From: Malacoraja senta
Taxonomy: Eukaryota
Assembly: GCA_038087875.1 (NCBI GenBank)
Contig: CM075993.1
Location: 6,698,001-6,762,000, forward strand
Direction of reading: 5' to 3'
Length of the DNA: 64,000 bases
Position 1 is the first letter of the stretch. Each line of letters starts with the position of its first letter. Under the pieces are notes generated by a model, which was given only the letters and a program-made list of their open reading frames with translations, searched no databases and had not been told where the DNA came from. Of this stretch, positions 1-64,000 are shown one piece after another. The position numbers were made by a program, and so were the translations under genes.

Positions 1-441
1 TGCGTGGGTTTTCTCCGAGATCTTCGGTTTCCTCCCGCGCTCCAGAGACGCACAGGTGTGTAGGTTAAGTGTTTAGGAAGGAACTGCAGATGCTGGAAAA
101 TCCCAGGTAGACAAAAATGCTGGAGAAACTCAGCGGGTGCAGCAGCATCTATGGAGCGAAGGAAATAGGCAACGTTTTGGGCCGAAACCCTACCGGGTTT
201 CGTCCCGAAACGTTGCCTATTTCCTTCAGGGTTTCGGCCCGAAACGTTGCCTATTTCCTTCGCTCCATAGATGCTGCTGCACCCGCTGAGTTTCTCCAGC
301 ATTTTTGTGTACCTGGTGTGTAGGTTAATTGATTTGGTGTGTGTAGGGTTAGCGTTCGTGTGTGGGGATTGCTGGTCGGTGCGGACTTGATGGGCCAAAG
401 GGCCTGTCTCCGCACTGTATCTCTAAACTAAACTAAACTAA
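1..441 (+). mobile_element. HE1-like V-SINE (5' part outside window; full copy at ~31979-32543) interrupted by a Penelope hairpin insertion
   Basis: V-domain tgggttttctccgaga...ggtttcctccc, 3' tail gggcc(g/a)aagggcctgt...gtatctc(taaac)n. Copy 2 shows the tRNA-derived head (tggcgcagcgg A box, ggttcgatcc B box). Confidence 0.85.
69..314. mobile_element. Inverted (fold-back) Penelope-like terminal repeat insertion with 14-bp TSD
   Basis: GGTGTGTAGGTTAA is duplicated at 55-68 and 315-328. The arms aaaatgctggagaaactcagcgggtgcagcagcatctatggagcgaagg / ccttcgctccatagatgctgctgcacccgctgagtttctccagcatttt are reverse complements. Copy 2 at 32171-32416. Confidence 0.85.
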
Positions 442-865
442 AGATGGCTTGACTATGCCCCTGGAACATGAAGGGTATCTTCATGCGCGGTTTCCAAAGG
501 CAAGTGTTAAAGAGAAGCTCGACTTCACTTCTAATGAGCTGATATCCTCCTGGCATTTGTTCTCCTTTAGATGTTGTGGTGTCGTATGTACCCGGTATGG
601 ATGACGACCTGGTTTTTGCCTCCCATTCTGGAGGTCACCTACTGTCGCTAGCAGCAGCATCAGCTGCAACAGATGTCATCATATGCAACTCCTGTCAAAC
701 AGTGCTTGCTTAATGCTTCTCTAAATAGGCGGCGAGTGACACACGCCTTACTCTCCCGCTCAACCAGAACGCTGTCCTCCATGAGGTCAGAGAGTCAGAG
801 TGCCGAGCAGCACGGAAACAGACCCATGTCCCTCTATCCATGTACCTGTCCACATATCTTCTAGA

Positions 866-1172
866 TGGCGCAGCGGTAGAGTTGCTGCCTTACAGCGCTT
901 GCAGCGCCAGAGACCCAGGTTCGATCCCGACTACGGGTCCTGTCTGTATGGAGTTTGTACGTTCTCCCCGTGACCTGCCTGGGTTTTCTCCAAGATCTTC
1001 GGTTTCATCCCACACTCCAAAGACGTACAGGTTTGTAGGTTAATTGGCTTGATATAAGTGTAAATTGTCCCTAGTGTGTGTGGGATAGTGTTAATGTGCG
1101 GGGATCGCTGGTAGGTGCGGACTCGGTGGGCCGAAGGGCCTGTTTCCACGCTGTATCTCCAAACTATACTAA
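866..1172 (+). mobile_element. HE1-like tRNA-derived V-SINE
   Basis: A box tggcgcagcgg, B box ggttcgatcc, V-domain, CR1-like 3' tail. Confidence 0.85.
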
Positions 1173-1300
1173 AAATATTGCGGTAGTTCCAGTCTCAAAT
1201 ACCTCCACTGGCAGTTCCCTCCATGTACCCACCACCCTCTGTGTGAAAAAGTTACCCCTCAGGTTCTTATTAAATCGTTCCTCTCTCATCTTAAACCTAA

Positions 1301-2073
1301 CGGGCCTGTCACACTTGGGCGACCTAACCCGCGAGTCCAGAAGAGTGTCTTCGACCTTCAAGCTCAAGGGGCACTCGCCTGGAAAGCCTCGAGCTGGATC
1401 GACCGGCCACGTTGAAACCGCGAGCTGGATCGAGCGAACCGCGAGCTGCATCTACCGCACGCACACACACACACAAGCACATCGTGAAGGTGGGGGCCAG
1501 GGAAAGCGGAGGAGCGTTGTCTGCGCGATGAAGAGGCAGGAAAACGGCTGCCACAGTAACGGTAAGTCCTTTGGAGAGCGCGGAAGGGGGGGGAGAGAAG
1601 GGGGGGGGAGAAGGGGAGGAGAAAGGGGGGGAGAAGGGGGGGAGAAGGGGGGGGGGGGAGAAGGAGTGGAGACACTTTTAAGAAGTATAATAAAGTTTAG
1701 CGGGCATTTTACCTTCCGGTAGGTCTTCCTTGGTCCTGAAAACTCCAATGAGCCAATCAAAATGCCCGGTCAGCGAAGGAGATTGCCCTCGACTGCCTGT
1801 AAGTAAATAGCGACCCCACTCCACTGCACTACGAGTTAAAAAGACCCATGCCCACCAAATTTTACTTGCGGAAAATTTTTCAATATCCGGGAAAATCTTT
1901 CCGCGACCTAGCTGAGGCCGCGTGTAGGCGGGAACTTCCCTCGAGCATGCAGGAGAGTTCCAGCGAACTCATAGGACCTCCTAGGACCACGTGTCGACCA
2001 TGCTGCGAGTTTGACGGTCGAGGACAAACTCTTCTAAACCCGCAGATTAGGTCGCCGTGGTGGGACAGGCCCT
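1301..2073. mobile_element. PIF/Harbinger-like non-autonomous element (MITE) inserted in a CR1 fragment; copy 2 at 33403-34288
   Basis: TIRs cgggcctgtcacacttgggcgacct / aggtcgccgtggtgggacaggccct, flanked by taa and caa (TWA-like 3-bp TSD). It splits the CR1 sequence ttaaaccta|gtcctctggttcttg. Confidence 0.7.
1585..1662 (+). repeat. (GGGGGGAGAA)n G-rich tandem repeat with G-quadruplex potential; expanded at ~33685-33880
   Basis: Visible directly; the offset between the two copies grows by ~113 nt across this region. Confidence 0.9.
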
Positions 2074-2247
2074 CAAGTCCTCTGGTTCTTGATTCCAATA
2101 CTCTGGGTAAAAGATTCTGCGCATTCACCCCATCTATTCTCATCATGATCTTCCCTTTATCCTGTATCTGTACACTGTGGACAGCTTGATTGTAATCAGG
2201 TATACTAAGTCTTTATGCTTTTAATGATAATAATAACGAGGGGGAGA

Positions 2248-2410
2248 TCTCTCTCTCTCCCTCTTTCTCCCTCCCCTCTCTCTCTCTCTCACCCTCCCGC
2301 CCTCTCTCCCTCCCCTCTCTCTCTCTCTCCCTCCCACCCTCTCTCCCTCCATCTCTCTCTCCCTCCATCTCTATCTCCCACCCTCCCTCTCTCTCTCCCT
2401 CTCCCCGCTT
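2248..2410 (+). repeat. CT-rich polypyrimidine microsatellite
   Basis: (CT)n/(CCCT)n run visible directly. Confidence 0.9.
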
Positions 2411-7325: not shown

Positions 7326-8110
7326 CTGCAGGCACAAACCGTTCTTGGTTACAAGCGACGCTACTCGAGGCTAAACCAGTCAACCTACTCAACACATTTC
7401 AATAGCAATTTGGCAACTTGGTTTTGAAAAGGATAGATGCCCAGGAAAAGGGCTTAGAAACGGAGTTATTGTCCAAAAATAACTCCATGAAAAGATCTTC
7501 AGCACAAGCTTGAAATTCCTCGAATTTCCCATCTTAAATACCTGAATGTTTTCAGATATTAAATAAAAACTAAAGACACTGCAAAGACTCAGCAGGTCAG
7601 CCAGCATCTATGGATAGAGACACAAAGTCAATGTTTCAGGTCAAGGACTGTCACACAAAGGGTTTTGAAAGATGTAGAAACAAGAAACTGCAGATGCGGT
7701 TTACAAAAACAAGACACCTTGCCTCACCTGGGGGACAGGGATGTACGGCCAATGTTGTGCCTATCCACTGCCTCCAGAACATTGCCCATGATGTGTGTTG
7801 TTGGAACAACTGAGGGACGTTGCAGGACCAGACCAGAGCAAAAGCTTTTCTTACCTGACCTTACCTTGGACAGGTAGAAACAAGGATCTGCAGGTGCTGG
7901 TTGACAAAAAAAGACGTCATATGCTGGAGTAACTCAGCGGGCCAGGCAGCATCTCTGGTAGATATGGATAGGTGACATATTGGACAGGTATATGGGTAGG
8001 AAAGGTTTAGAGGGATATGGGCCAAATGCATGGGAAGGAACTGCTGATGTAGCACCAAGCTGTAGTAAGCTCAGCGGGTCAGACAGCATCTCTGGAGAAA
8101 AGGAATAGGT

Positions 8111-8138
8111 GACGTTTCGGGTCGAGACCCTTCTTCAG
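8111..8138 (-). ncRNA. Minimal hammerhead ribozyme motif in Penelope terminal repeat; copy 2 at 40326-40353
   Basis: CUGAAGA-A-GGGU(CUCG)ACCC-GAAAC-GUC, with 5' GGU and 3' ACC able to form a short stem I. Confidence 0.7.
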
Positions 8139-8169
8139 ACCATAAAAACCAAATGCAGGCAAGTGGGTA

Positions 8170-8485
8170 ATAGACAATAGACAATAGGTGCAGGAGTAGG
8201 CTATTTGGGCCTTCGAGCCAGCACTACCATTCAATGTGATCGTGGCTGATCATCCCCAATCAGTACCCCGTTCCTGCCTTCTCCCCATATCCCCTGACTC
8301 TGCTTTTTTTTTAAAAGCCCTATCTAGCTCTCTCTTGAAAGCATCCAGAGAACCTGCCTCCACCGCCCACTGAGGCAGAGAATTCCACAGACTCACCACT
8401 CTCTGTGAGAAAAAGTGTTTCCTCGTCCCCGTTCTAAATGGCTTACTCCTTATTCTTAAACTGTGGCCCCTGGTTCTGGACTCCT
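8170..8485 (-). mobile_element. CR1 LINE 3' end with (CTATTGT)n tail
   Basis: ESRTRGHSLRIRSKPFRT...FSQRVVSLWNSLP...FKRELD in ORF 8250..8678. Confidence 0.85.
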
Positions 8486-8582
8486 TGGTGGACTTTGGGG
8501 TACCTTGGTGGGCATGGGCAAGTTGGGTGTGCTTCTGTGCTGTATGACATAGACTGTATGACTCCATGGCTCCGTCACTTAC

Positions 8583-8700
8583 TTGTACAGCTGAAGTGAG
8601 TGTTTCTTTCCGTATTGGAATATTTGATACTTGGGAAGGCCGCAATATCGGTCCATCTCCTTGTCGTCTTTGTACCATGTGATCTCCGGCGCTGGATGTC
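8583..8700 (-). CDS. ALPK3: ALPK3 Ig-domain exon (118 nt), copy 1
   Basis: ctattcctag|GACATCCA...CTGTACAA|gtaagt. Encodes (G)HPAPEITWYKDDKEMDRYCGLPKYQIFQYGKKHSLQLY(K), matching ALPK3 GYPEPEVTWYKDDTELDRYCGLPKY; phases join both neighbouring exons. Confidence 0.95.
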
Positions 8701-9104
8701 CTAGGAATAGAACATATTCAGGTCAGCCACAGGGTCATTTACATTCAAAATAAGAGATACAACATGGTTAGTCAGAAAGCCCAAAGCATCTCAGTGCTGG
8801 TGCACCCATTGTATTCATTAGTATTAATTTTAAGGAAAGACACAAAGTGGTGGAGTGACTCAGTGGGTCGGGCAGCATCTCTGGAGAAAATGGATAGGTG
8901 ATCTTTCGGGTTGGGACACTTCTTCAGACCTGGTTACTCCAGCACTTTGTGGCTTTTTATGCAGTTCCTTCATATTACGGTGATTGAAGGATGTACTGAA
9001 GGGCGATACGTGGGCAGCGGGTAGTGCCACTGTCACACAGTTCCAGTGACACTCAGGGTATTTACAATGGCTGATTATCCCACCAAGTTGCACATCCTTG
9101 AGAT

Positions 9105-9395
9105 TTTAGTTTAGTTTAGAGATACGGCATGTAAAATAGGCCTTTCGGCCCACCGAGTCCACACTGACCAGCGATCCCCGCACATTAGCAATACCCTACA
9201 TTGCACTATTTTACATTTATGCCAATTACAAACCTGTATGCCTTTGGAGTGTGGGAGGAAACCAAAGATCTCAGAGAAAACCCACGCAGGTCACGTGGAG
9301 AACGTACAAACTCCGTACAGGCAGCGCCCGTAGCGAGGATCAAACCCGTGTCTCTGGCGCTGCACGGCAGTAGCTCTGCCGCTGTGGCACCGTGA
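9105..9395 (-). mobile_element. HE1-like SINE
   Basis: Reverse-complement head, V-domain and (taaac)n tail. Confidence 0.8.
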
Positions 9396-9745
9396 TCTGG
9401 GAGGAAACGGTGGACAGCACCCCGGAGGAATCCCACGCGGTCACAAGGCGAACGTGCAAACTCCACACAGACAGCACCAGAGATCAGGATCGACCCAGAC
9501 ATAGGAGACATTGAATTTGAAAGACGACAACTCTACCAGCTGCGCCACTGAGCTGAATAATTCCCAGAGGAACAGTGATCTCAGAGGCAAGGATAAAGTG
9601 AATACCTATTGTCTTTTTCCCCCAAGCAAAGGACAGCCCAGAACTAGAGGGCACAGGTTTATGGTGAGAGGGGAAAGATTTAAAAGCCACCTGGAGAACA
9701 AATTCTTCACACAGAGGCTGGTGGATAAACAGAACGAACTGCCTG

Positions 9746-10022
9746 AGGGTGGCACAGTGGTGCAGCGGTAGAATTGCTGCCTTACAGCATCAACGACCCT
9801 GGTTCGATCCTGACTAGGGGTGCTGTCTGTAACATTGTAGACTTTCTCCGAGCGGTTTCCTCCCACATTCAAAAGAACTGCAGGTTTGTGGGTGAATTGG
9901 CTTCTGTAAACTGTCCCTAATGTATAGGATAGGACGAGTGTATGGGGAACGCTGGTCGGCACGGACTCGGTGGGCCGAAGGGCCTGTTTCCATGCTGTAT
10001 CTCTAAACTAAACTGAACTAAA
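9746..10022 (+). mobile_element. HE1-like SINE
   Basis: gggtggcacagtggtgcagcggtag head, ggttcgatcc B box, tail. Confidence 0.8.
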
Positions 10023-10651
10023 GGAATGAGTAGAGGCAACTTTTAAAGGGCATTTGGAAAGGTGCACGGACTGGAAACGTTTAGAGGGAATGTGTAGGAC
10101 GGAACACAAAGGTAGACACAAAAATCTGGAGTAACTCAGTGGGTCAGGACCTCTGGAGATAAGGAATGCTGTAGGTGACGTTTTGGATTGAGAAGTCTGA
10201 AGAAGGATCTCGACCCGAAACATCACCTATTCCCTTTCTCCAGAGAAGCCGCCTGTCCCGCTGAGTTACTCCAGCTTTTTGTGTCTATCTAAGGATTAGA
10301 AGCATATGGGCCAAATGCGGGAAGTTGGGACTAGCATAGATGGGGAATCTCAGGTGGCAAGGACAAGTTGTAAAACCCATTTCTGTTGTAAAACCCAGTC
10401 GGCGTGGACGAGAGTGGCTGAAGGACCTGTGTCCCTGGGGTAAGGCTCTATGAGGGTGGCAGACTTTGAATGTCCTTGAAGGGGAGAGGGGAAGGGCTGG
10501 AAGTGAAGGAGCAGATTTATTTTTAAACGCAGCAAGGATCTTGGAGCCTTTACAGCTCCAGACTCTACAAGCAAGGACAGAGTGTTAAGCAGCATCCAGC
10601 ATTGGTGGTATCCCTTCACAGATTGCCTCCATATTCTGGCTGGTGGTTTTC

Positions 10652-10955
10652 AGTTTAGTTTCGTTTAGTTTAGAGATGCAGCACGAAAACAGGCCCTTCG
10701 GCCCACCCAGTCCGCACCGACCAGCGATCCCCGCACATTAACACTATCCTACACACGCTAGGGACAATATTACAATCAATTAACCTACAAACCTAAACGT
10801 CTTTGGAGTGTGGGAGGAAACCGAAGATCTCGGAGAAAACCCACGCAGGTCACGGGGAGAACGTACAAACTCCGTACAGACAGCACCCGTGGTCAGGATC
10901 GAACCTGGGTCACCGGCGCTGTAAGGCAGCAGCTCTACCGCTGCGCCACCGTGCC
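10652..10955 (-). mobile_element. HE1-like SINE
   Basis: Near full-length reverse copy. Confidence 0.85.
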
Positions 10956-10986
10956 GTTATTGTCATGTGTACCGAGGTACAGTGAA

Positions 10987-11290
10987 AACATAGAAACATA
11001 GAAAATAGGTGCAGGAGTACCATTCAATATGATCATGGCTGATCATCCAACTCAGTATCCTGTACCTGCCTTCTCTCCATACCCCCTGATCCCTTTAGCC
11101 ACAAGGGCCACATCTAACTCCCTCTTAAATATAGCCAATGAACTGGCCTCAACCACCCTCTGTGGCAGAAAATTCCACAGATTCACCACTCTGTGTGTGA
11201 AAAACAATGTTCTCATCTCGGTCCTAAAAGACTTCCCCCTTATCCTCAAACTGTGACCCCTTGTTCTGGACTTCCCCAACTTCCCCATCG
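10987..11290 (-). mobile_element. CR1 LINE 3' end
   Basis: ORF 11052..11288 SRTRGHSLRIRG...HRVVNLWNFLP; (ctatgttt) tail. Confidence 0.85.
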
Positions 11291-12397
11291 GGAAGGTTTT
11301 TGTTGCGTGCTAACCAGTCAGCGGAAAGGCAGTACATGATTACAATCGAGCCATTGACAGCGTATAGATACATGATAAGGGAATAACATTTACAAAGGGA
11401 ATTAACTTTGGGCAGCAACTTAGATTAGAAGTGCTCACAGCATTATTGCATGACCCCAACTTGCCTCTGGGTAGAATTAAACTGAAGCTTTGAACACCAA
11501 ACCGGTCATAGAACAGATTCATAGGTTGACGCAAAATACTGGAGTAACTCAGCGGGTCAGGCAGCATCTCTGGAGAACATGCACAGGTGACTTTTCATGT
11601 CGGGATTGGGAAGAGCCTGAGGAAAGGTCCAGACCCAGAACATCACCTATTCATGTTCTCCAGAGATGCTGCTAGGAGACGTTTCAGGTCAGGACCTATC
11701 TTCACACTCTTGTTATAACAGCAGGTACATGGATAGGCAAGGTTTAGAAGGATATGGGCCAAACGCAGGGAGATGGGACTAGTGGAGATGGGTCATCTTG
11801 TGGGAAATTTGGGGCAAAAGTTATGGATCCGTGCAGTATGACTCAGTCTGAAGAAGGGTCCCGACCCAAATCTTCACATATCCATGTTCTCCGGAGATGC
11901 TGCCTGGCCCACTGAGTATTCCTGTGTTACAGCAGTGTCTACAATTCAGAAATATCACCTTGGCTGTAAAGAGCATTGGAACAGTCTGTGGTTATAAGGG
12001 GCACGAAACAAATGTGAGACTTTTTCTTTCTTTGTTAAATCTTGAAAATTAAAATTCTCTTAGTTTTTTCCGTTCTTTTATCAGGCTGAAGAAGGGTCTC
12101 GACCAGAAACATCACCATCACCTATCACCTTTCACCTATCCAAAGGTCAGGACCTTTCCTCAGACTCTTCTCAGACCCAACCTGAAAAGTCACCTGTCCA
12201 TGTTCTCCAGAGATGCTGAGTTACTCCAGCACTTTGTGTCTTTTTGTAAAGTGAACCTGCATCTGCAGTTCCTCGTGTCTACCAGTCATAGGGTGCATTT
12301 GTAAGTTTGGTGCCAGTAACATCCTGTTTTCAGGCAGATGCTAAGCAAGAGTTGCCCGAGCACTATTGCAGGGTCGAGGAGAAGGGGCCCAGAGTTA

Positions 12398-13035
12398 AAC
12401 ATAGAAACATAGAAAATAGATGCAGGAGGAGGCCATTCGGCCCTTCGAGCCAGCACCGCCATTCATTGTGATCATGGCTGATTGTCCCCAATCAATAACC
12501 CGTGCCTGCCTTCTCCCCATATCCCTTGATTCCACTAGCCCCTAGAGCTCTATCTAACTCTCTCTTAAATCCATCCAGTGATTTGGCCTCCACTGCCCTC
12601 TGTGGCAGAAAATTCCATAAATTCACAACTCTCTGGGTGAAAACGTTTTTTCTCACCTCAGTCTTAAATGGCCTCCCCTTTATTCTAAGACTGTGGCCCC
12701 TGGTTCTGGACTCGCCCAACATTGGGAACATTTTTCCTGCATCTAGCTTGTCCAGTCCTTTTATAATTTTATATGTTTCTATAAGATCCCCACCTCATCC
12801 TTCTAAACTCCAGTGAATACAAGCCTAGTCTTTTCAATCTTTCCTCAAATGACAGTTCCGCCATCGCAGGGATCAATCTCGTGAACCTACGCTGCACTGC
12901 CTCAATCACAAGGATGTCCTTCCTCAAATTAGGAGACCAAAACTGTACACAATACTCCAGATGTGGTCTCATCAGAGCCCTATACAACTGCAGAAGAACC
13001 TCTCTACTCCTATACTGAAATCCTCTTGTTATGAT
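12398..13035 (-). mobile_element. CR1 LINE 3' fragment
   Basis: ORFs [18 protein letters not shown] and ESRTRGHSLRIKG; ctatgttt tail. Confidence 0.9.
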
Positions 13036-13179
13036 GAGTTGGATGAATCAGATCAAAAGCACCCGTTTTGTACAGTGGGGTGAAAGGGGTAAAGAGATAT
13101 GATCCAAAGGAAGATATGGAGGGATATGGGCCTACGATAGGTTTCGGGGAATATGACCCAAAGAAGGTTTTAGAGGGAA

Positions 13180-14835
13180 ATAAGTTCTTAAGTCATAGCA
13201 ACAGAATTAGGCCATTCTGCCCATCGACTATACTCTGCGATTCAATCATGGCTGATCTATCTTTTCCTCTCATCCTCATTCTCCTGCCTTCTCCCCATAA
13301 CCTTTGACACCCGTTATTAATCAAGAACCTATCAATCTCCGTCTTAAAAATACCCCGTGACTTGGCCTCCACAGCCATCTGTGGCGATAAATTCCACAAA
13401 TCAACCACCCTCTGACTAAATAAATTCCTCCTCATCTTCTTTCTAAAGGTACGTCCTTTTATTCTGAGATATGGGCCAATAAAAGGTTTATAGGGATATG
13501 AGCCAAACGCAGGCAGGTGGGGCTTGTGTGGTTGGGGTAGCTTGGTCAGCATAGGCAAGTTGGGCCGAAGGGCCTGCTTCCATGCCGATTGACTCAATGA
13601 TTCTATGACTGAGTCTCCTTAAGGCAGAGATAGAGATTCTTGATTAGTACGAGTATCGGAGGTTATGGGGAGAAGGCAGGAGAATGGGGTTAGGAGGGAT
13701 AGATAGATCAGCCATGATTGATTGGCGGAGTAGACTTGATGGGCCCAATGGCCTAATTCTGCTCCGGTTCCTTATGACCTTGTGAACTTCTGCAGTTTAT
13801 GACATCAAGACAAACACGGGGAAGGTATTGCCATTATGGACTCTCCCTCCTTGAGTTCGTCTCTTGATCTCTTGTCAACCTGTTTTGTTCTAGCTATTTC
13901 TTGACTCCTAATCACCCCGCTCCACCCCAATCATTTAGTCTGAAGAAAGATTCCGACCCAATAGACAATAGGTGCAGGAGTAGGCCATTTGGCCCATCGA
14001 GGCAGCACCGTCATTCAATGTGATCATGGCTGATCATCCCCAATCAGTACCCCGTTCCTGCCTTCTCCCCACATCCCCTGCCTCCACTATCTTTAAGAGC
14101 CCTATCTAGCTCTCTCTTGAAAGTATCCAGAGAACCGGCCTCCACCGCCCTCTGAGGCAGAGAATTCCACAGACTCACAGCTCTCTGTGTGAAAAAGAGA
14201 CCCGAACTGTCACCTATTCCTTTTCTCCAGAGATGCTGCCTGATCCATTGACATTCCAGCATTTTATGTCTATTTTGATCATATGGCCAAATGTGAGAAT
14301 GTTTAGTCTAGTTTAGTGTCACGTGTACCGATGTTACAGTGAAAAGCTAACCAGTCAACGGAGGGACAATACATGATTACAATCGAGCCAACTAGAGTGT
14401 ACAGATACATGCTAAAGGGAACACTTAGTGCAAGATAAAGTCAGATTAAAGATAGTCGATGGGTCCCCAAAGAGGCAGAATAGTGAACGGCCTGGATAGA
14501 GTGGGTATGGGGAGATTGTTTCCACTAGTGGGAGAGTCTCGGACCAGATGTCATAGCACAGAATTAAAGGACATTCCTTTAGGAAGGAGATGAGGAGGAA
14601 TTTCTTTCGTCAGAGGGTGGTGAATCTGTGGAATTCATTTCCACAGAAGTTTGTGGAGGCCGAGTCAGTGGATATTTTTAAGGCAGAGATAGATAGATTT
14701 TTGATTAGTACGGGTGTCAGGGATTCTGGGAAGAAGGCAGGAGAATGGGCTTAGGAGGGAGAGATAGATCAGCCATGATTGAACGGCGGAGTAGACTTGA
14801 TGGGCCGAAGGGCCTAATTCTGCTCCTATCACTAA
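13180..14835. mobile_element. Cluster of CR1 3' ends in both orientations with Penelope and Rex-like tail fragments
   Basis: Repeated FSQRVV.LWN.LP..VEA motifs and gggccgaa(t/g)ggcct tails at ~13180-13470 (-), 13610-13785 (+), 13960-14195 (-), 14485-14835 (+). Confidence 0.75.
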
Positions 14836-15144
14836 CGGACAAGAATCTCCACAAAGTGCGGTGCACTGCACCGGTGATGCCATCACGTTGACATGGAATG
14901 CCTGACAGACCGAGTGACCCGGCCTCTCGAGAGAAGTTTGACAACAACCAGAGTCAAAGCACTTCAGTATACACACACACTGTTCATGTGATCCTATCTC
15001 ACATGTCCCTGCCCGCTTCTTCCTTTTGTGAGTCATGAGTCAGGTTACAGAAATAACACTGAATTGATGTGTAACATCATTTTATATTATTGTGCAAAGT
15101 GTAAGCTGAGAGTGTGATGTTGCAGAGTCTTATAGCATGGCAGT

Positions 15145-15607
15145 AACGGGACTGTCGTATGAGGAAAGATTGAAAAGACTAGGCTTGTATTCACTGGAGT
15201 TTAGAAGGATGAGGGGGATCTCATAGAAACATATAAAATTATAAAAGGACTGGACAAGCTAGATGCAGGAAAAATGTTCCCAATGTTGGGCGAGTCCAGA
15301 ACCAGGGGCCACAGTCTTAGAATAAAAGGGAGGTCAATTAAGACTGAGGTGAGAAAAAACGTTTTCACCCAGAGAGTTGTGAATTTGTGGAATTCCCTGC
15401 CACAGAGGGCAGTGGAGGCCAAGTCACTGGATGGATTTAAGAGAGAGAGTTAGATAGAGCTCTAGGGGCTAGTGGAGTCAAGGGATATGGGGAGAAGGCA
15501 GGCACGGGTTATTGATAGGGAACGATCAGCCATGATCACAATGAATGGTGGTGCTGGCTCGAAGGGCTGAATGGCCTCCTCCTGCACCTATTTTCTATGT
15601 TTCTATG
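15145..15607 (+). mobile_element. CR1 LINE 3' end, near-identical inverted partner of 12398-12860
   Basis: Same subfamily sequence (gatgcaggaaaaatgttcccaatgttgggcgagtccagaaccaggggccacag). Confidence 0.9.
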
Positions 15608-15931
15608 GCCAGCTCTTTAGGCAGGGCTGTCTCATTGATCTCTGATTTATCATTCGTTCTAATTATTGTTTTTTTACTGTCAACATTTATTTTTTTCATT
15701 TGCATATGCCACACAATGTGCCAGTCGACTGGACATTGCCGCACCATCCGTTCTTCCGAACCAACACCTTTGACCACAAGGGCATTGGTCAGCACGGATC
15801 GTCCTACCGGCACTGCAGGGAAATGACTCCATGGATCCTGTGGCGTGGTTCCCAGACTGCCCAGCTTGCCTGGCAAAATGCCTCATCGTCAGAACTCACC
15901 AACCATCAGGGGGAATAGATAGAATCTCTTT

Positions 15932-16702
15932 GAGGCACAAAATGCTGGAGTAACTCAGCGGGACAGGCAGCATCTCTGGAGGGAAGGAATGTTTGACTTA
16001 CAGGTCGAGACCCTTCTTCAGACTGAGAGTCAGGGGGGGGGAGATACAGAGATAAGGAAGTGCAAGGTGTAAGGTCGAGACATCAAAGGGGGGTGGAGAT
16101 CATGGAAAATGTAGAATGGATCATTGTTAGCTAGGAGATGGTGACAATCTCCTAGCTAAGGAGATAGGAGCGAATGCAGCGCCAGAGACCCTGGTTCAAT
16201 CCCAACCACGGGTGCTGTCTGTACGGAGTTTGTACGTTCTCCCCATGACCTGCATGGGTTTTCTCCGAGATCTTTGGTTTCCTCCAACACTCCAAAGATG
16301 TACAGGTTTGTAGGTTAATTGGCTTGGTAAATTGTCCCTAGTGGGTGTAGGATAGTGTTAATGTGCGGGTATCGCTGGTCGGCGCGGACCCAGTGGGCAG
16401 AAGAGCCGGTTTCCGCGCTGTATCTCAAAACTAAACTAAATGAAGCAAACAGAGATAGAATGTACTCGGAGACAGTCAGACTGGTGGGAGAACTGGGAAG
16501 GGAGAGGGATGGAGAGGGAGGGAAAGCAAGGGTTACTTGAAGTTAGAGAAGCCAATGTTCATACCGCTGGGGTGTAAGCTGCCCAAGCAAAATATGAGAT
16601 GCTGTTCCTCCAATTTGCGCTGGGCCTCACTCTGACAATGGAGGAGGCCCAGGACAGAAAGGTCAGTGTGGGAATGGGAGGGGGAGTTAAAGTGTTTGGC
16701 AA
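15932..16702 (-). mobile_element. Penelope-like element 3' end: GIY-YIG endonuclease C-terminus, 3' UTR and hammerhead-bearing terminal repeat, interrupted by an HE1 SINE (~16170-16440); copy 2 ~48140-48910
   Basis: Minus strand 16700-16533 reads AKHFNSPSHSHTDLSVLGLLHCQSEAQRKLEEQHLIFCLGSLHPSGMNIGFSNFK*, the HF...E..I..L..L.P.G.N signature of PLE GIY-YIG domains. It is followed by a pyrimidine-rich UTR and the ctgaagaagggtctcgacc repeat. Confidence 0.85.
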
Positions 16703-16724
16703 ACGGAGGTTTGTTTAGCTGAAG

Positions 16725-16975
16725 TTTGTTTAGTTTAGATTAGTTTAGTTTCATTTCGTTTAGAGATACAGCGCGGAAACAGGCCCTTCGGCCCACCGAG
16801 ACCCAGCCAACCAGCGATCCCCGCACATTAACACTATCCTACACACAGTAGGGACAATTTACATCTATACCAAGCCAATTAATTGACAAACCTGTACGTT
16901 TTTGGTGTGCGGGAAGAAACTGGAGATCCTGGAGAAAACCCACGCAGGTCACGAGGAGAACGTACAAACTCCATA
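16725..16975 (-). mobile_element. HE1-like SINE (5'-truncated)
   Basis: V-domain and (taaac)n tail. Confidence 0.8.
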
Positions 16976-17034
16976 CATGCCTTTTATATTTTACTTCCTG
17001 TGCCGTTTGTGTCTCAGGAACTTTCTTTAGATTT

Positions 17035-17314
17035 TGACTAACTTCGGGAAAATTGGACACCGAATAGTGGAGAGTGAAGACGACCTCCTTCAACCTCCTT
17101 TCGACTATCATGAAGACTACGTACGACTACCTTCGACTTCCCTCGATTACCTACGACTAACAAGACTAAACCTACGAGCAAAAAAGTATCGATTTTTTCC
17201 ATGGCAACCTTTTTTTACTCGTCCTACGACCTCGTGTCGACCATGCTGCGAGTATGAGTCGAGGGCAAACTCGCCAGAACTCGCGGATTAGGTCGCCCAA
17301 GTGGGACAGGCCCT
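17035..17314 (-). mobile_element. Half copy of the Harbinger-like MITE seen at 27014-27522
   Basis: Ends attaggtcgcccaagtgggacaggccct|taa; the interior is the reverse complement of ~27014-27425. Confidence 0.75.
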
Positions 17315-17429
17315 TAACTCAGCAGGTCAGGCAGCATCTCTGGAGAACATCCATTGGTGGCATTTTGGATCGGTACCCTTCTTCTGACTCTTCACATTGA
17401 GCCCTTGCATTGCTTTCCTCCCTTTAGGC

Positions 17430-17727
17430 TTTAGAGACGCAGAGTGGAAACAGGCCCTCTGGCCCACCGGGTCCACGTCAACCAGCGATCACCCCGTACT
17501 CTAGCACTATGCTACACGCCAGGGACAATTTACAATATACAGAAGCAAAATTAACCTACAAACCTGTACGCCTTTGGAGTGTGGAGGGAAACCGGAGCGC
17601 CCGGAGAAAACACACGCGGTCACACACGGTAAACGTCCAAACTCTGTACAGACAGCACCCGTAGTCAGGATGGAACCTGGGTCTCTGGTGCTGTAAGGCA
17701 GCAACTCTACCGCTGTTCCACTGTGCC
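17430..17727 (-). mobile_element. HE1-like SINE
   Basis: Reverse head, V-domain and tail. Confidence 0.8.
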
Positions 17728-17799
17728 GACTCATATTGGTATCTGCTGCCAATTTATCATTGATTCAGGTTTAGGTGGAAGTGGAACTTCGTGCATTTA

Positions 17800-18176
17800 A
17801 GAGGTGACATTGAAACATATAAGATTATTAAGGGTTTGGACACGCTTGAGGCAGGAAACATGTCCCCGATGTTGGGGGAGTCCAGAACCAGGGGCCACAG
17901 TTTAAGAATAAGGGGTAAGGCATTTAGAACGGAGATGAGGAAACACTTTTTCCACACAGAGAGTTGTGAGTCTGTGGAATTCTCTGCCTCAGAGGGCGGT
18001 GGAGGCCGGTTCTCTGGATACATTCAAGAGAGAGCTAGATAGGGCTCTTAAAGATAGCGGTCAGGGATATGGGGAGGAGGCAGGAACGGGGTACTGATTG
18101 CGGATGTTCAGCCATGATCACATTGAATGGCAGTGCTGGCTCGAAGGGCCGAATGGCCTGCTCCTATTGTCTATTG
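17800..18176 (+). mobile_element. CR1 LINE 3' end
   Basis: ORF 17791 [14 protein letters not shown]...ESRTRGHSLRIRG; ctattgt tail. Confidence 0.85.
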
Positions 18177-18518
18177 TGACCGAGGGCCTTTGCCTGGCCC
18201 ACCGTGGGTCGCTCCCTGCTAACCCACCCTTACTGCTTACCTTCAATTAAAGCCGCAGGTCACGCAGCCTACAACTAGGTCCCTGCTCCACAACCCAGAG
18301 GGATGGTCTGTAACTCAATATCTCTCACATGTCCTATCTTGCCGCAAGCACAGCCCGGCGTGCTGGATGGTTAAAATAGCTTGAAGTTAACAACATAAAA
18401 ATGTATCATGTGACAGAGAGCAGTGAAGCTGGACACTAACTGGACCTAAAGGAGAAGAATCAATCCGGGACAACATCACGTCATCGTCTTCCTTGATCAA
18501 CGTCTGTGCAGTAATAAT

Positions 18519-18897
18519 ATGAAGGAAGGAACTGCAGATGCTGGTTTAAACTGAAGATAAAGACACAAAATGCTGGAGTAACTCAGTGGGCCAGGCAGCA
18601 TCTCTGGAGAGAAGGAATGGGTGACGTTTCGGGCCGAGACCCTTCTTCAGTCTGAGAGTCAGGGGAGAGGGTAGGACACGGAGATAAGGAGGGGTAAGGT
18701 GTGAAAACGGGACATAGCTTCCAGCTATGTCCCGTTTTCACACCTTACCCCTCCTTATCTCCGTGTCTCTGAGCTGGTCTCCACCCGAAACGTCACCCGT
18801 TCCTTCTCTCCAGAAATGCTGCCTGTCCCGCTGAGTTACTCCAGCATTTTTATGTCTATCTTCAGTTTAAACCAGCATCTGCAGTTCCCTGCCACAC
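18519..18897. mobile_element. Fold-back Penelope terminal-repeat insertion with a central perfect 45-bp palindrome
   Basis: Outer arms ggaactgcagatgctggtttaaactgaagata / tatcttcagtttaaaccagcatctgcagttcc; inner arms 18675-18719 and 18723-18767. Confidence 0.85.
18623..18650 (-). ncRNA. Minimal hammerhead ribozyme motif; copy 2 at 50831-50858
   Basis: CUGAAGA-A-GGGU(CUCG)GCCC-GAAAC-GUC. Confidence 0.65.
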
Positions 18898-19394
18898 AAA
18901 TGTTTAAAAGAGTTGTTTAAAGGAGTGTGCGGGGTAAGTTAAAGTTTAAAGGAGATGTACAGGCAACTTTTCTTTTTACACAGAGGGTGTTGGGTGCCTG
19001 GACTGTACATATGCGGCCTGACACACTGAAAGTTTCTACCATTTAATTTTGCTTTTACTACAAAGGAACGCTTCTTTATCCATTGAAAGATTGAATAATG
19101 GTTTTGAGGGAGCTTCCAAGGAGAAGGGTCTCGACCCGAAACGTCACCCGTTCCTTCTCTCCAGAGATGCTGCCTGTCCCGCTGAGTTACTCCAGCATTT
19201 TGTGTCTACCTTCCAAGAAGGATCTCACAAATTAATCTCATCCTCTGTATCGGAGTTCAGTGCCGAACTACTATCTACCTCTTTGATGACCCTCGGACTA
19301 TCCTTGATCGGACTTTGCTGGCTCTACCTTGTACTAAACGTTATTCCCTTAACATGTGTCTATACAATGTAAATGGATCGATTGTAATCATGTA

Positions 19395-20267
19395 TTAGAC
19401 AATAGACAATAGGTGCAGGAGTAGGCCATTCGGCCCTTTGAGCCAGCACCGCCATTCAATGTGATCATGGCTGATCATCCCCAATCAGTACCCCGTTCCT
19501 GCCTTCTCCCCATATCCCCTGACTCCGCTATCTTTAAGAGCCCCATCTAGCTCTCTCTTGAAAGTATCCAGAGAACTGAGGCAGAGAATTCCACAGACTC
19601 ACCACTCTCTGTGAGAAAAAGTGTTTCTTCGTCTCCGTTCTAAATGGCTTACCCCTTATTCTTAAACCGTGACCCCTGGTTCTGGACCCCCCCAACATCG
19701 GGAACATGTTTCCTGCCTCTAGCGTGTCCAAATCCTTAACAATCTTATATGTTTCAATAAGATTCCCTCTCATCCTTTTAAACTCCAGAGTGTACAAGCC
19801 CAGCCGCTCCATTCTCTCAGCATATGACAGTCCTGCCATCCCGGGAATTAACCTTGTAAACCTACGCTGCACTCCCTCAATAGCAAGAATGTCCTTCCTC
19901 AAATTAGGGGACCAAAACTGCACACAATACTCCAGGTGCGGTCTCACTAGGGCTCTGTACAACTGCAGAAGGACCTCTTTGCTCCTATACTCGACTCCTC
20001 TTGTTATAAAGGCCAACATGCCATTCACTTTCTTCACTGCCTGCTGTACCTGAATGCTTACTTTCATAGACTGATGAACAAGGACCCCCAGATCCCGTTG
20101 CACTTCCCCTTTTCCCAACTTGACGCCATTTAGATAGTAATCTGCCTTCCTGTTTTTGATACCAAAGTGGATAACGTCACATTTATCTGCATTAAACTTC
20201 ATCTGCCATGCATCTGCCCACTCCCCCAACCTGTCCAAGTCACCCTGCATTCTCAAAGCATCCTCTG
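19395..20267 (-). mobile_element. CR1 LINE 3' ~870 bp with RT C-terminal ORF (19534-20256); copy 2 frameshifted (~51603-52459)
   Basis: QGDLDRLGEWADAWQMKFNADKC...DLGV...[18 protein letters not shown]...TRGH, typical CR1 ORF2. Confidence 0.92.
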
Positions 20268-20467
20268 CTATTGTCTCTCTGCTGACCGGTTAGCAGGCAA
20301 CAGAAAGCTTTTCACCGTGCCTCAGTACACCTGACAATAAACTAAACTGAAGTGAGTTGAACTTGCCTGATCTGGAGCTCTTGATGGTTTCCACTGTAGC
20401 TTGGAAATACATGGTACATTATAGCCACTGGGCCTCTGACACCAGCACATCTTGTTTTATTGTTTCT

Positions 20468-20730
20468 TAGTTTAGAGATACAGCACGGAAACAGGCCCTT
20501 TGGCCCACCGGGTCCGCTCCGACCAGCGATCCCCGCACTATCCTACACACGGTACAATTTACCAAAACCAAACCAATTAACCTCTTTGGAGTGTGGGAGG
20601 AAACCGATGATCTCGGAGAAAAGCCACGCAGGTCACGGGGAGAATGTACAAACTCCGTACAGAACACACCCGTGGTCAGAATCGAACTAGGGTCCCTGGC
20701 GCAGTCAGGCAGCAACTCTACCATGCCGCC
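20468..20730 (-). mobile_element. HE1-like SINE
   Basis: Reverse copy with V-domain. Confidence 0.8.
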
Positions 20731-20947
20731 GTTGTGTTTGTAACAGGCTGTTAACATGACCCAGGATCACTCAGAGAACCGTGAAGCAGCAGCCAATTAC
20801 AAAGTAGCATCAAGGTACACAGCATAAAAGATTTAATTTCAGGTTTCAAAGTTCTCAAGTTTTTGTCTGCTTCTTAAAGCCACGTCATTTATTGAGCTTA
20901 CTCCGAAAATGCAGATAATCGGGATTTGAGCCTGTTCTCCCCTAATA

Positions 20948-21350
20948 CAGGTCCACCACCAATTTCCCAACATCCTTGCTTCCAGGGCCTTGCTGGACTG
21001 TCCATTTTGCTAGACCAACACAGGCCACGGCCTCTAAGAGGAGTCGAACTGGAGCAGAACGTTCCGCCTAGCCGCCGGGGGGCCGAGATGCCGGCCTCGG
21101 AAGTCGGCTATGGGAACGGATCTGCCAACTGCAGCTGGGTCGGAGTACCAGAGCCCCGGCCACAGGGGGGGGGGAAACAAAACCACAGATTGGCCGCGGA
21201 GGTCCCGATCAATGGGGAGAAGGCCCGCCTCACCCGGCCTAGATGCCACATTTTTGGGGGAAACTGTGATTTCAAGTGCACGCTCGTAATTTTGTCCGGA
21301 TTAAAGGAAGTGCCGGATATTTATTTGCCAGAAAATTGTTGGTGGACCTG
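20948..21350. mobile_element. Tc1/mariner (Tigger/pogo-like) MITE, 403 bp; copy 2 at 53139-53541
   Basis: TA|CAGGTCCACCACCAATTT ... AAATTGTTGGTGGACCTG|TA: ~18-bp TIR with one mismatch and a TA TSD. Confidence 0.8.
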
Positions 21351-21394
21351 TAGTAATAACACTCTCAATGCCGGGATTCATGCCAGGATTCCGT

Positions 21395-21690
21395 TCAGAG
21401 ATACAGCGATGAAACGGGCCCTTCCAACAGACCTCACCGACAAACGATCACCCGCACCCAGGTTCTATATTATCCCAGAGTAACATCCAACACACTAGGC
21501 ACAAATTTAGAGAAGCCAATTCACCTACAAACCCTGCACGTTTTTGGATTGTGGTAGGAAACTGGAGTATCCGGAGAAAACCCACGCGGTCACAGGGAGA
21601 ACGTACAAAGTCGCTACAGACAGCGCCCGGAGTCAGGATCGAACCCGGGTCTCTGGAGCTGATACGCAGCAACTCTACTGCGGCGCCACT
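21395..21690 (-). mobile_element. HE1-like SINE
   Basis: Reverse copy with B box and V-domain. Confidence 0.75.
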
Positions 21691-22494
21691 TCTCAAGAGA
21701 TTACTCTAGTCGTTTGTCATCTGAAGTTTCAACTTTAGTTTTACGTTTAATTTTAGAGATACAGCATAGAAACCAGCACTTTGGCCCACCGAGTCCACAT
21801 TGGCCAACGGCCACCCATTCACATGAATTCTATCTTTTATCTTTAGTCTGAAGATGGGTCCCAACTTGAAACATCATCTATTGATCTGAAGGGTCCTGTC
21901 GTGAAACGTCACCTATCCATGTTCTCTAGAGATACTGCCTAACCCGTTAAGTTACTCTAGCACTTTGTGTTGGTGTTGTAAACCAGCATTTGCAGTTCCT
22001 TGCGTATAAATTTTACCGCACTACTGAAAGATCTCCTCAAGATATGTCTACATTGAAGATTTTCTCCCAGTCTGAAGGAGTCCATCCTGAAAAGTCACCT
22101 ATCCATGTCCTCCAGAGATGCTGCCTGACCCACTGAGTTACTCCAGCACTTTGTGTCTTTTTTCCTATCATGTCCCACTTTCACATCCACTCCCTACAAC
22201 TTAGTGTACACTTGTTTGGCATTGTTCTCAAGACTAATGTCAATCCTGGAGTCTGAAAAAGGGTCCCGACACAAAACGTCACCTCTTCATGTTCTCGAGA
22301 GATGCCGCCTGACCCCACCCCCCCCCCCCCCCCATAAACTAGCATCTGCAGTTCCTTCTATCACCGTCAAACCCGCAGTTCCTTTTGGGGGCTCCAAAGT
22401 TATAGTTTTGATGCAATTAACGAGTGTATATCAGCAATGGAGCCAGAAAATCATGGTGGTATCATCCCCAGAAAAGAATAAGTGAGTTCCATAC

Positions 22495-22616
22495 CTGAAA
22501 CTATGCAAGTGAACTTGATATCAGAGTCTTCAGATACTGAATGGGATTTCAGTGTGGTTTCAAAACCTGGCTGGGTCTCTTCCGTTATCTGAGCAATGAT
22601 AGTGCAAAAAGTTTGT
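22495..22616 (-). CDS. ALPK3: ALPK3 Ig-domain exon (122 nt), copy 1
   Basis: ttttctctttcag|ACAAACT...GTTTCAG|gtatgg. Encodes QTFCTIIAQITEETQPGFETTLKSHSVSEDSDIKFTCIVS(G), matching ALPK3 STFCSIIAQLTEETQPLFETTLKSRSVSEDSDVRFTCIVTG. Confidence 0.95.
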
Positions 22617-22680
22617 CTGAAAGAGAAAATAATCGGCAGTGCTCAAATTAGTTTAGATTAGAGATACAGCGCGGAAACAA

Positions 22681-23252: not shown

Positions 23253-23360
23253 AAACAGGCCCTTCAGCCCACCGCGTCCGCACCGACCAGCGATCCCCGC
23301 ACACTAACACGATCCTACACACGCTAGGGACAATTATACATTCATACCAAGCCAATTAAC

Positions 23361-23457
23361 GTCTGAAGAAGGGTTTCAGCCCGAAACGTTACCTATTTCC
23401 TTCGCTCCATAGATGCTGCTGCACCCACTGAGTTTCTCCAGTATTTTTGTGTACCTT
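23361..23457 (+). mobile_element. 97-bp Penelope mini-insertion (hammerhead plus downstream arm) inside an HE1 SINE, 8-bp TSD
   Basis: CAATTAAC at 23353-23360 and 23458-23465; the insert begins GT-CTGAAGA. Confidence 0.8.
23363..23390 (+). ncRNA. Minimal hammerhead ribozyme motif; copy 2 at 55551-55578
   Basis: CUGAAGA-A-GGGU(UUCA)GCCC-GAAAC-GUU. Confidence 0.65.
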
Positions 23458-24869: not shown

Positions 24870-24900
24870 CTGACCAAGCAGCAAGGTGGCACCACAGATA

Positions 24901-60700: not shown

Positions 60701-61564
60701 ATAAGGCAGCAACTCTACTACTGTATCAGAATCACTATTTCCCAAGCTTATACGTCCTAGTCTGTTATAAACCCAACACAGCCTTTCATCTCATGGATTA
60801 GTGGACAGTCACACAGCCATTTCAAGAGTCTTTCTAAGATGGGCACTGAAGGTTTTCTCATTGCAGCAGGCTTACTTGGGAAATGTGTATACTCCCTATA
60901 GAGGTGACACGGTGACACTGATGGTGGATCTGATGTCTCACAGTTCCAGTGAACCAAGGTTCAATCCTGCTCTCAGATACTGTCTGTAACTGTGTGGGTC
61001 CCCCCCCCCCCCCCATGCTCAGGTTCTTTCCCACATCGAAAGACGTACAGGGTGCCTGGTTGGTTAATTAAATAAGCGTCAGAATCTGGGAGGAATTGAT
61101 AGGAATGTGGGGGGGAATACAATGGGAATTGTGTAAATGGATTTAGACTTCAGACATACAGTGTAAAAACAGGCACTTCAGCCGACCGAGCCCGTACACC
61201 ACCCCCCCCCCCCCCCCCCCGCACAATAGCACCATCCTACACACGAACAAACAATGGCCCCATAGCACAAGCGTCCACGTCGCGGGGCTGGAAACTGGAA
61301 GTATCCCGAGCTAATTCTGCTACCACCATCATCTACTGCGACAAGTGATGGCTCCCACTGATTGCACGCTCCAGCTCCATCTTGATATAGTCCGTTTTTG
61401 TAATTTTAGGTTAATTTAAAGGGAAATAGTTTGTAGGAAATTAGAATGGGCGCAAGTACAGTTAAAGAGACAGCTACGATAAAGGTCACCAAAGGTCATT
61501 TTGTCTTGAAAGCCCAATGATAATGTTTACCGTAAAGATCCCAAAAGTCTACTTACTTTTAATT

Positions 61565-61840: not shown

Positions 61841-62400
61841 TGCTCTGTCTATTCAAATTCAGTTCCATGTTAAATGCTACTTCATTAATAATGTCTGTAG
61901 CTTATAACATGTTTGTCACTCTCAGTTACCCATGGTTCTATTAGCTTTAAAATAGTTACGGATAAAGACAGGGTGAGCCCATGAGTTCAAATTGTGCATT
62001 GGGGCAAGGCCAGCTTTGATGGTATTAAACAGGAACTTGCCCAAGTAGATTGGGGCAGGTTGCAAGCATTGACTGACATCTTGCATCTGTTATACGATGT
62101 CCGAACACGCCGAATATTTCACTCGTATTATAAAACAGAGAAACTGTGATATTCCTGTATTTATCAACAAATTCATTTTTCCCTACAAAGTGTGATATGT
62201 TTCACTATCAATATAAGTGATAAAATCTCAAATAAAGGACATTGAGATTCTAAAAAGAAGCAGAGTTCAGATTGGTAAGATTGGTACGAAGTGAAAGGAA
62301 ACACACAAGGCTGTATGTTATGGTTATATCTGGACCGTACAAAACAGCTCAGCACAACTCACGTTTTGCCAAGAGCAAAAGTAGATGGGATATTGTACAG

Positions 62401-62616
62401 GAAGGAACTGCAAATGCTGGTTTAAACCGAAGATGGACACAAGAAGCTGGAGAAACTCAGCGGGTCAGGTAGCATCTCCGGAGAAAAGGAATAGGTGACG
62501 TTTCAGGTCTTCAGACAGTCTGAAGAAGGGTCTCGACCTGAAACGTCACCTATGCCTTTTTGCCAGAGATGCTGCCTGACCCGCTGAGTTACTCCAGCTT
62601 CTTGTGTTTATCTTCG
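62401..62616. mobile_element. Fold-back Penelope terminal-repeat insertion
   Basis: Inverted arms cgaagatggacacaagaagctggagaaactcagcgggtcagg / cctgacccgctgagttactccagcttcttgtgtttatcttcg. Confidence 0.8.
62520..62547 (+). ncRNA. Minimal hammerhead ribozyme motif
   Basis: CUGAAGA-A-GGGU(CUCG)ACCU-GAAAC-GUC (G-U closes stem II). Confidence 0.6.
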
Positions 62617-63016
62617 ATGTAAATTCTCCCTTGTGTGTAAGATAGTGTAAGTGTGTGGGGATCGCTGTTGGCAGGGACTCGGTGGGCTGAATGGCCTGTT
62701 TCCATGCTGTATCTCTAAACTGTACGTCTGACCTGCTGAATCACTCCAGCTTTTTGTGTCTCTCTATGGATGGGATATTGCCTGTAGATTCTCATCGCTC
62801 ACAGGTCAGATATTAATATCGCAGCATTTACACATTGGTCTTGCCCTTTCATCTTCACCAGGTCAACAGGATCAGTCTGGTATCAGCCACCAAAATGGAT
62901 GGTCGTTGGATGCCAGACAAATGCACGAACGTCACGCGCTTGAAGGCGGTAATTTGGCCTTTGAGTGAAGGAAGGTGGGCTTTGAATGTCCGATGTTTGG
63001 ACAATCGACCTCCACG

Positions 63017-63026
63017 TTAAAAATAG
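63017..63026. promoter_or_regulatory. MEF2 consensus site
   Basis: TTAAAAATAG matches YTAWWWWTAR in non-repeat sequence 5' of the visible ALPK3 exons; motif match only. Confidence 0.3.
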
Positions 63027-63157
63027 GTAACTGCTCAGGTTCCACCACCCTTAGGGGAAGAGAATACCCAAGAATCGCCATGTTCCTGAGGGGAAAGGTT
63101 TCACCCATCTGTCTCTAATGTGGGACCCCTATTTTGTAAGCAGTTGTAGATCGTAAC

Positions 63158-63777
63158 CTGTGGAAAACGCCACAAGATTTGCCTATCTTGGCAGCATGTT
63201 CACAACAGATGGAGATGCAGAGGTCGACACAAACTCCCAAATTGGTAAAGTTGCATCAGTCTTCAGAAGAATGCAGCCAATATGGCGGGATATCCAAGAT
63301 GCTAAAAGTCAAACTCTTCCAATCCGTAGTCCTCCCAACAGCCCTCTACGCCAGTGAGACATGGAAAATCAATGTGAAGATGAAAAATAAATTGGATGCG
63401 TTCCAACAACGCTGTTTGAGGAAGATCCTGAAGACTAGCTACAGGGACCACATCACAAACGAGGAGATCTACGGGGAAACTGCAACAAGGCCTCTCAGCC
63501 AGGACATAGAGGGACACAGGATGAAATTTGCAGGGCATGTACTCAGAATGTCACCAGAACGTGCATCTAAGATAGCAAAGACATGGCAACCTGACGGAAG
63601 AAGGATAAGAGGCCGACCAAAACACACATGGAGGCGAACATTCCAGAAGGATTTGGAAGCCCGGGACACAAGCCTATCGAGGGTGGAAGACGTCACACAT
63701 GACCGAACAGAATGGCGAAAGCTTGCTGCCCAATGCACTCAACAGTGTGGGAGGAACTAAGTCTAAGTCTAAGTAAG
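63158..63777 (+). mobile_element. RTE-clade LINE 3' end with (CTAAGT)n tail, one frameshift
   Basis: FAYLGS...IGKVASVF, then LFQSVVLPTALYASETW...LDAFQQRCLRKIL...FAGHVLRM...RGRPKHTWRRT...DRTEW; stop followed by gtctaagtctaagtaag. Confidence 0.88.
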
Positions 63778-64000
63778 ATTCACCCACCAGAAAAAACATC
63801 TGCTCCAGACCCTCAAGACCTTCAATCAAGTCACCTCTCGCCCTTCTGAATTCCACCAGATGCAAGTCTACCTTTTATCACAAGTCAACCCTCCCATTCA
63901 ATACATTGAAGATAGACACAAAATGCTGGAGTAACTCAGTGGGACAGACAGCATCTCTGGAGAGAAGGAACGGGTGATGTTTTGGGTCGAGACCCTTCTT

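Follow-up and report, generated by a model that had tools for sequence, protein, structure and literature searches.

Hammerhead ribozymes have been known in the pseudo-long terminal repeats (pLTRs) of Penelope-like elements (PLEs) since 2014. The minimal hammerheads of metazoan pLTRs combine a type I core with an extra base before stem II, a G10.1-C11.1 pair and palindromic positions 15-16 without a loop 3, and most of them reside in solo copies (PMC4209133). Helix I has 4-5 bp in S. mansoni and 2 bp only in D. virilis, low activity was measured for dimers of such motifs, and 4,000-9,000 copies were reported for coelacanth and Xenopus (PMC4209133). In Anolis the PLE Poseidon can insert without its hammerhead, which requires a protein (Frangieh et al. 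2024, PMC11167929). A ribozyme of another class, resembling that of hepatitis delta virus (HDV), is found at the 5' ends of Ingi and RTE elements (PMC5786205), and likewise of R2 elements. Here we describe a pLTR family with a minimal hammerhead motif in a 64,000-nucleotide stretch of the Malacoraja senta genome (GCA_038087875.1, contig CM075993.1, positions 6,698,001 to 6,762,000, forward strand; hereafter the window).

The family is a new member of the known class, of extreme copy number. It has all the motif features listed above, and most of its copies are also solo. It differs from the described hammerheads in a helix I of 2 bp, as in D. virilis, in a helix II of 4 bp, and in its abundance (about 68,000 strict cores by extrapolation). 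No paper on this Penelope hammerhead family was found in our literature search. Its tens of thousands of young copies are a natural experiment on whether Penelope hammerheads cut the RNA used for transposition. Young copies start at the 5' edge of the hammerhead and not at its cut site, which bears on this open question of cleavage.

The pLTR family and its element

An initial annotation, made from the letters of the window, described a short repeat present in dozens of copies in both orientations and attributed it to Penelope terminal repeats. A pLTR profile built from 30 genomic copies and run with nhmmer confirmed this, with 69 matches in the window. Because half of the window is duplicated, they correspond to 41 independent copies (hand count). 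The features concerned are as follows.

106..313, no single strand: inverted and partial-tandem pLTR cluster, 5'-truncated within the core
7574..31453, both strands: span of 34 of the 41 independent pLTR matches, mostly decayed or truncated
8057..8140, minus: solo pLTR copy with intact core 8111-8138, third stem I pair supplied by the flank
16539..16733, minus: remnant of a Penelope-like endonuclease C-terminus (tblastn, 66% identity over 67 aa)
18560..18855, no single strand: head-to-head inverted pLTR pair; minus copy with intact core 18623-18650 and zero stem I pairs
23361..23458, plus: young solo pLTR copy, core 23363-23390, predicted cut after 23390
24900..25112, plus: pLTR copy preceded by about 120 nt of the element (end of the open reading frame (ORF), pyrimidine tract), core 25020-25047
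62434..62612, no single strand: head-to-head inverted pLTR pair; plus core 62520-62547 with G-U at 10.1-11.1

All five cores annotated as intact are present with the stem II sequences given for them, and each of the ten annotated decayed cores lies inside a profile match. A strict descriptor, which demands an exact core, a G-C pair closing stem II and a palindrome in stem III, has seven matches in the window, i.e., four independent copies (8138, 18650, 23363, 25020), and none in 100 Markov controls. The G-U at the conserved pair of the 62520 copy is decay of the CpG type. An Rfam scan of the window gave no hammerhead match; its miRNA matches there turned out to be inverted pLTR pairs and a palindrome. 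The counterpart of 25020-25085 in the duplicate segment (about 57223) lacks the hammerhead core owing to a deletion that joins two short similar sequences.

The genome is indeed densely seeded with the repeat. The exact 27-mer core pattern has 42,315 matches genome-wide, and its reversed control has none. In an unselected sample of 60 loci of 10 kb (599 kb together), the profile has 316 matches, about one per 1.9 kb, which extrapolates to roughly a million pLTR pieces in the genome.

Coding sequence of a reverse transcriptase (RT) or a GIY-YIG endonuclease lies directly upstream of the repeat in four of the first 30 genomic copies. In a protein search, the 112 genomic matches scored among 115,407 candidates have 97-100% identity and open frames of up to 1224 aa. 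In all 16 long-ORF loci fetched, a single ORF with RT and C-terminal GIY-YIG stops about 117 nt ahead of the core, and the first ATG of the following ORF is 163 nt downstream of the core. The protein has the motifs DKG, YIDD, a C-x4-C-x2-C linker and YIGET in this order; Pfam GIY-YIG and RVT_1 match in PLE order, below the gathering threshold. Relatives of the protein have the same architecture. We also found head-to-tail tandems (L070, 4.1 kb; L077, 3.9 kb), inverted pairs (L065, L069, L080) with truncated partners, and a tail of 30-40 bp, as expected of PLE pLTRs. Since the RT and GIY-YIG ORF is upstream, the next ORF is downstream and the units are in tandem, the repeat is the pLTR of a young, very high-copy, endonuclease-positive PLE. 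For the same reason the short copies are truncated insertions and not a separate non-autonomous family, as had been proposed; young ORF-bearing copies exist.

The element is likely of the Neptune type. The Cx2-5CxxC linker between RT and endonuclease, the C-terminal GIY-YIG, DKG and the inverted 5'-truncated partners are shared with the Neptune clade (PMC8557442), a likeness of motifs and not of a tree, and a similar linker is also tied to Nematis (PMC8557442). Like Poseidon (PMC11167929), the element has tandem units, lacks a sign of copies ending at the cut site, and has a tail of 30-40 bp that two internal RT starts would produce. Unlike Poseidon, whose ORF starts inside the hammerhead (PMC11167929), it has its first ATG well after the core and an ORF of more than 1220 aa with a Cys linker.

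Non-LTR retrozymes, which have been reported in one chondrichthyan genome, likewise carry hammerhead sequences derived from pLTRs (bioRxiv 10.64898/2026.07.22.740005). They are tandem arrays of short units, whereas the window has scattered solo copies or inverted pairs flanked by target duplications, and we rejected this identity.

Copy ends and the role of the hammerhead

We numbered copy ends relative to the hammerhead core, so that the predicted cut site is +28. The 5' ends were tallied in 89 unbiased young copies (L031-L080 and the centre copies of L001-L030 and L141-L200 were excluded as biased). The largest group, 33 copies, starts at -6..+1, just 5' of the core; 13 extend beyond -100, four start at -100..-7, 25 at +2..+12, 10 at +13..+25, two at +26..+29, which spans the cut site, and two at +30..+31. 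Once the 19 copies of an amplified insertion are counted as one, the matches listed comprise 82 independent copies. Of these, 44 continue upstream; the remaining 38 are truncated, 36 of them at 0..-6 (hand count). The amplified insertion is a solo pLTR of which a 2-2.5-kb tandem array at G000:C1:3.87-4.04 Mb holds about 19 copies. Older subfamilies have a similar 5' edge as judged by eye, uncounted.

The 3' ends fall at two fixed sites about 35 nt apart: 56 of 96 at +93..+96 and 21 at +127..+135. This pattern agrees with the pair of internal RT starts described for Anolis Poseidon (PMC11167929). A direct repeat of at least 8 nt, i.e., a target duplication, flanks 13 of 24 solo copies. In the window, the copy at 23361..23458 begins 2 nt ahead of the core, ends at the first tail site and is flanked by an 8-bp duplication (23353-23360 and 23459-23466). 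An extra G precedes three of the eight copies that start at -3, which is too few to judge whether it derives from a cap. In contigs of four sequencing runs, loose ends at -6, +94 and +129 are the repeat boundaries and are uninformative on expression.

Genome-wide, two foreign bases occur at the cut site in 161 of 29,890 copies and at a control position 3 nt from it in 136; many of these copies are inversion junctions. Thus the cut-site signal is a small excess and not a peak.

We regard it as probable that the short copies are RT run-offs from uncleaved RNA whose predicted start lies a few bases ahead of the hammerhead of this likely Neptune-type pLTR. An internal promoter would start transcription at TCAGT just ahead of the core. 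TCAGT resembles the initiator consensus. An internal promoter with an initiator (Inr) and a downstream promoter element (DPE) is described for D. virilis Penelope (PMC2377424). The RT would begin internally, either 94 or 129 nt in, and copy from there to the RNA 5' end, giving solo copies of 100-135 bp; read-through RNA from tandem units would give the long copies. If the RT runs to a 5' end at TCAGT, the template would be mostly uncleaved. An HDV-headed element of the same genome, described below, serves as a control that supports this: it begins exactly at its predicted cut site. The sharp 5' mark left by an HDV-type ribozyme means that such a mark is detectable here, and the Penelope hammerhead leaves none. 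The hammerhead would be at most a slow, dimer- or protein-dependent ribozyme, dispensable for new insertions.

The structure of the motif bears on the cleavage activity implied by the initial annotation, which we could not support. The core CUGANGA / GAAA / UH, the extra base after A9, G10.1-C11.1 and the ACGU palindrome of stem III are all present and fit the published motif (PMC4209133). Stem I has only 2 bp in 62 of 86 strict cores (in the 25020 copy, 25018-25019 pair with 25048-25049), and its third pair is A-C in 254 of 372 copies. In folding, the predicted pairing of stem I is about zero in L070 and in the 25020 copy of the window, the double hammerhead reaches -6.5 kcal/mol versus -29.8 kcal/mol for the best dimer fold, and the hammerhead is not the predicted ground state of either monomer or dimer. 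Together with the lack of a pile-up of copies at the cleavage site, this suggests that the hammerhead probably does not cut its RNA efficiently.

Conservation was assessed in clusters of 381 copies (K=6, 8 and 10), built on the region downstream of the core. The two or more subfamilies expected earlier do exist, and they are more than two: six to nine clusters with 4-22% divergence. Across their consensuses, the 11 invariant core positions are all constant at K=6 and K=8, and one is variable at K=10. Of the 65 positions downstream, 20-24 vary at K=6 and K=8, and 23 at K=10 (Fisher p = 0.057, 0.014 and 0.16 for K=6, 8 and 10, a contrast inflated because the clusters were built on the downstream region). 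The supposed covariation of stem II was not borne out: the loop-closing pair is U-A in 235 and U-G in 100 of 371 copies, the remaining changes are in the loop, and no two-sided change is seen at the subfamily level. No compensatory covariation was found in the hammerhead stems, only wobble changes between subfamilies, which are close to each other and give low power.

The invariance of the core has led us to consider that an active dimeric hammerhead cuts tandem read-through RNA into units in vivo, the cut RNA being unused as an RT template and leaving little genomic trace. The changes at 11.4, 17 and 1.1 are all of a tolerated type, tandems place two cores on one RNA, and dimers of such motifs had measurable, if low, activity (PMC4209133). 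We nevertheless consider this explanation unlikely. The conservation contrast is inflated and is weaker at K=10, and N7 and the extra base, on which a hammerhead places no constraint, vary as little as the core. Stem I has 2 bp, and the tandem cores are 3.9-4.1 kb apart. Alternatively, the conserved 35 nt could be retained chiefly because they serve as an internal promoter or bind a protein, with the hammerhead as a catalytically dead relic. Conservation is unbroken from -5 to +11, across the boundary where copies start, which would suit such a site, as would the D. virilis promoter (PMC2377424) and the unfavorable fold. However, a role as promoter would not by itself predict that a full core, stem II, the palindrome of stem III, NUH and two pairs in stem I are retained throughout the subfamilies, and this reading overlaps with that of RT run-offs, differing only on residual catalysis; we hold it to be improbable. 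Finally, every subfamily has a pyrimidine tract and CAG ahead of the core, and the D. virilis intron ends at helix I (PMC4209133), so the 5' boundary could be a 3' splice site, with splicing supplying a longer stem I. The upstream flanks of solo copies are unrelated to each other, and these copies have target duplications rather than a common exon; none of the 15 of 35 joints listed is a GT..AG joint into the boundary (contigs only). This makes a splice site the least probable of the explanations.

Several points weigh against RT run-off from the uncleaved RNA of a Neptune-type element. When normalised, 0.9% of the 5' ends lie at the cut site versus 0.5% at one control site, and this small excess may reflect rare cleavage. 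No transcript start was observed, the data being contigs whose RNA status is only guessed, and the folding energies disregard tertiary contacts and protein. The Neptune assignment rests on one motif and PMC8557442. No frameshift-free pLTR-ORF-pLTR unit is present among the fetched loci, L070 and L077 both being frameshifted.

A predicted CPEB3-like ribozyme at retroelement 5' ends

The HDV-type control for the hammerhead was a short retroposon, which then became a separate lead. In the window it is represented by one copy.

61256..61364, plus: 5' 109 nt of a retroposon of about 195 bp, with a predicted CPEB3-like HDV-type ribozyme at 61256-61323 (RF00622)

The copy lies inside the span of the hammerhead repeat and belongs to a different family. 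It lacks the 3' half of the retroposon and has a mismatch in P2. RF00622, the Rfam model of the mammalian CPEB3 ribozyme, matches at 61244-61321 with 37.4 bits (cut-off 35 bits). To our knowledge, the CPEB3 ribozyme has been reported only from mammals.

The retroposon has at least 229 exact 23-mer copies genome-wide, a GAA tail and target duplications of 10-13 bp abutting G1 (L231-L280). Upstream flanks are unrelated in the 100 listed of the 229 exact matches. By hand count, 35 of 43 distinct copies begin with the P1 sequence, and in 20 of the 43 a target duplication of at least 10 nt ends exactly before G1. The ribozyme at 61256 is predicted to self-cleave 5' of G1, and the duplications support this indirectly because they abut G1.

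A genome search with RF00622 (59 candidates scored) gave 51 matches, 39 of them over the cut-off and reaching 64 bits; 14 control genomes gave none. The heads fall into several families. The family of the window copy has a 6-bp P1 and a two-pair P1.1. The highest scores belong to a long interspersed element (LINE) family with such a 5' end (L281-L284, L286, L287, L290, L291, L297, L300; L311-L317). Further families comprise L292, L294, L296, L302 and L305; L295, L298, L304 and L306; L301, L303 and L307-L310 (the L301 type almost without P4); and L285, L289 and L293. P2, P3, L3 and J4/2 match the CPEB3 consensus letter by letter, as do P1 and P4 in some families (L292 and its relatives match the mammalian consensus in both), and the match covers stems that are free to vary.

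Covariation supports the predicted nested double pseudoknot of HDV type, with the catalytic C in J4/2. In 18 hand-picked copies, with kinship among them uncorrected, 15 of 25 pairs have a two-sided change and 84% of cells are paired, versus 34-48% in slid controls; the score was reached by none of 500 shuffles.

The ribozyme-headed LINE is young and 3.1 kb long, with a single frame of about 1000 aa encoding an apurinic/apyrimidinic endonuclease-like domain and RT (APE-RT) that starts no more than about 100 nt from the ribozyme. In three of seven copies target duplications abut G1, and the GAA tail is that of the short retroposon. Named relatives occur in lancelet, sea urchin, insects, fish and Anolis. 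The 5' end was matched in one of four sequencing runs (of another organism), and the blank runs prove nothing. Vingi elements are about 3.1 kb long, with a single APE-RT ORF without RNase H and short bipartite derivatives (PMC13708176, PMC5786205). Length, domains and the shared GAA tail fit a Vingi-like LINE. The short retroposon and LINE L311 have only the ribozyme core and the tail in common, and local BLAST found no LINE partner for the retroposon beyond these.

The ribozyme resembles those of Ingi and RTE (PMC5786205) in its location at a retroelement 5' end. Unlike the mammalian CPEB3 ribozyme (RF00622), it is multi-copy, mobile and outside mammals, and is a ribozyme by prediction only. 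CPEB3-like heads on several retroelement families suggest a retroelement origin of the mammalian ribozyme. We lean slightly towards the view that the 61256 ribozyme belongs to a recently mobile group made up of Vingi-like LINEs with ribozyme heads and of short elements derived from them, and that the ribozyme in the mammalian CPEB3 intron arose by exaptation of the 5' end of an element of this group. Among the listings and abstract starts searched, no paper connects the CPEB3 ribozyme with Vingi or with a fish retroposon, although the link may already be in print. If this view is right, the CPEB3 ribozyme gains outgroups that it lacked, and ribozymes meet two fates in one genome: the HDV-type ribozyme makes the element's 5' end, and the Penelope hammerhead, at the capped start of its RNA, does not. 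With mobile families that match the CPEB3 consensus in stems free to vary, the idea of a retroelement origin can be tested directly.

Duplication and other features of the window

Positions 1-26205 of the window recur at 32103-58337 with 99.1-99.5% identity, beside a 200-N gap (26206-26405). The duplicated stretch is at least 32 kb long (98.6-99.5% identity), its overlap reaching 5.7 kb upstream of the window. It is likely a false duplication, i.e., an uncollapsed second haplotype. The duplicated segment includes a 555-codon open frame matching vertebrate alpha-protein kinase 3 (ALPK3) at 5684-7348 and 37899-39563, both on the minus strand, which is likely a large exon.

A LINE 3' remnant with a short tandem-repeat tail, which we take to be RTE-like, lies at 63140-63780 on the plus strand. 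An abundant SINE-like family (repeat families D8-D10, D12, D14 and D15) and CR1/L2-like 3' fragments (D1, D2 and D4) occur at 9134-9400, 10650-10950, 16740-16980, 30920-31240 and other positions.

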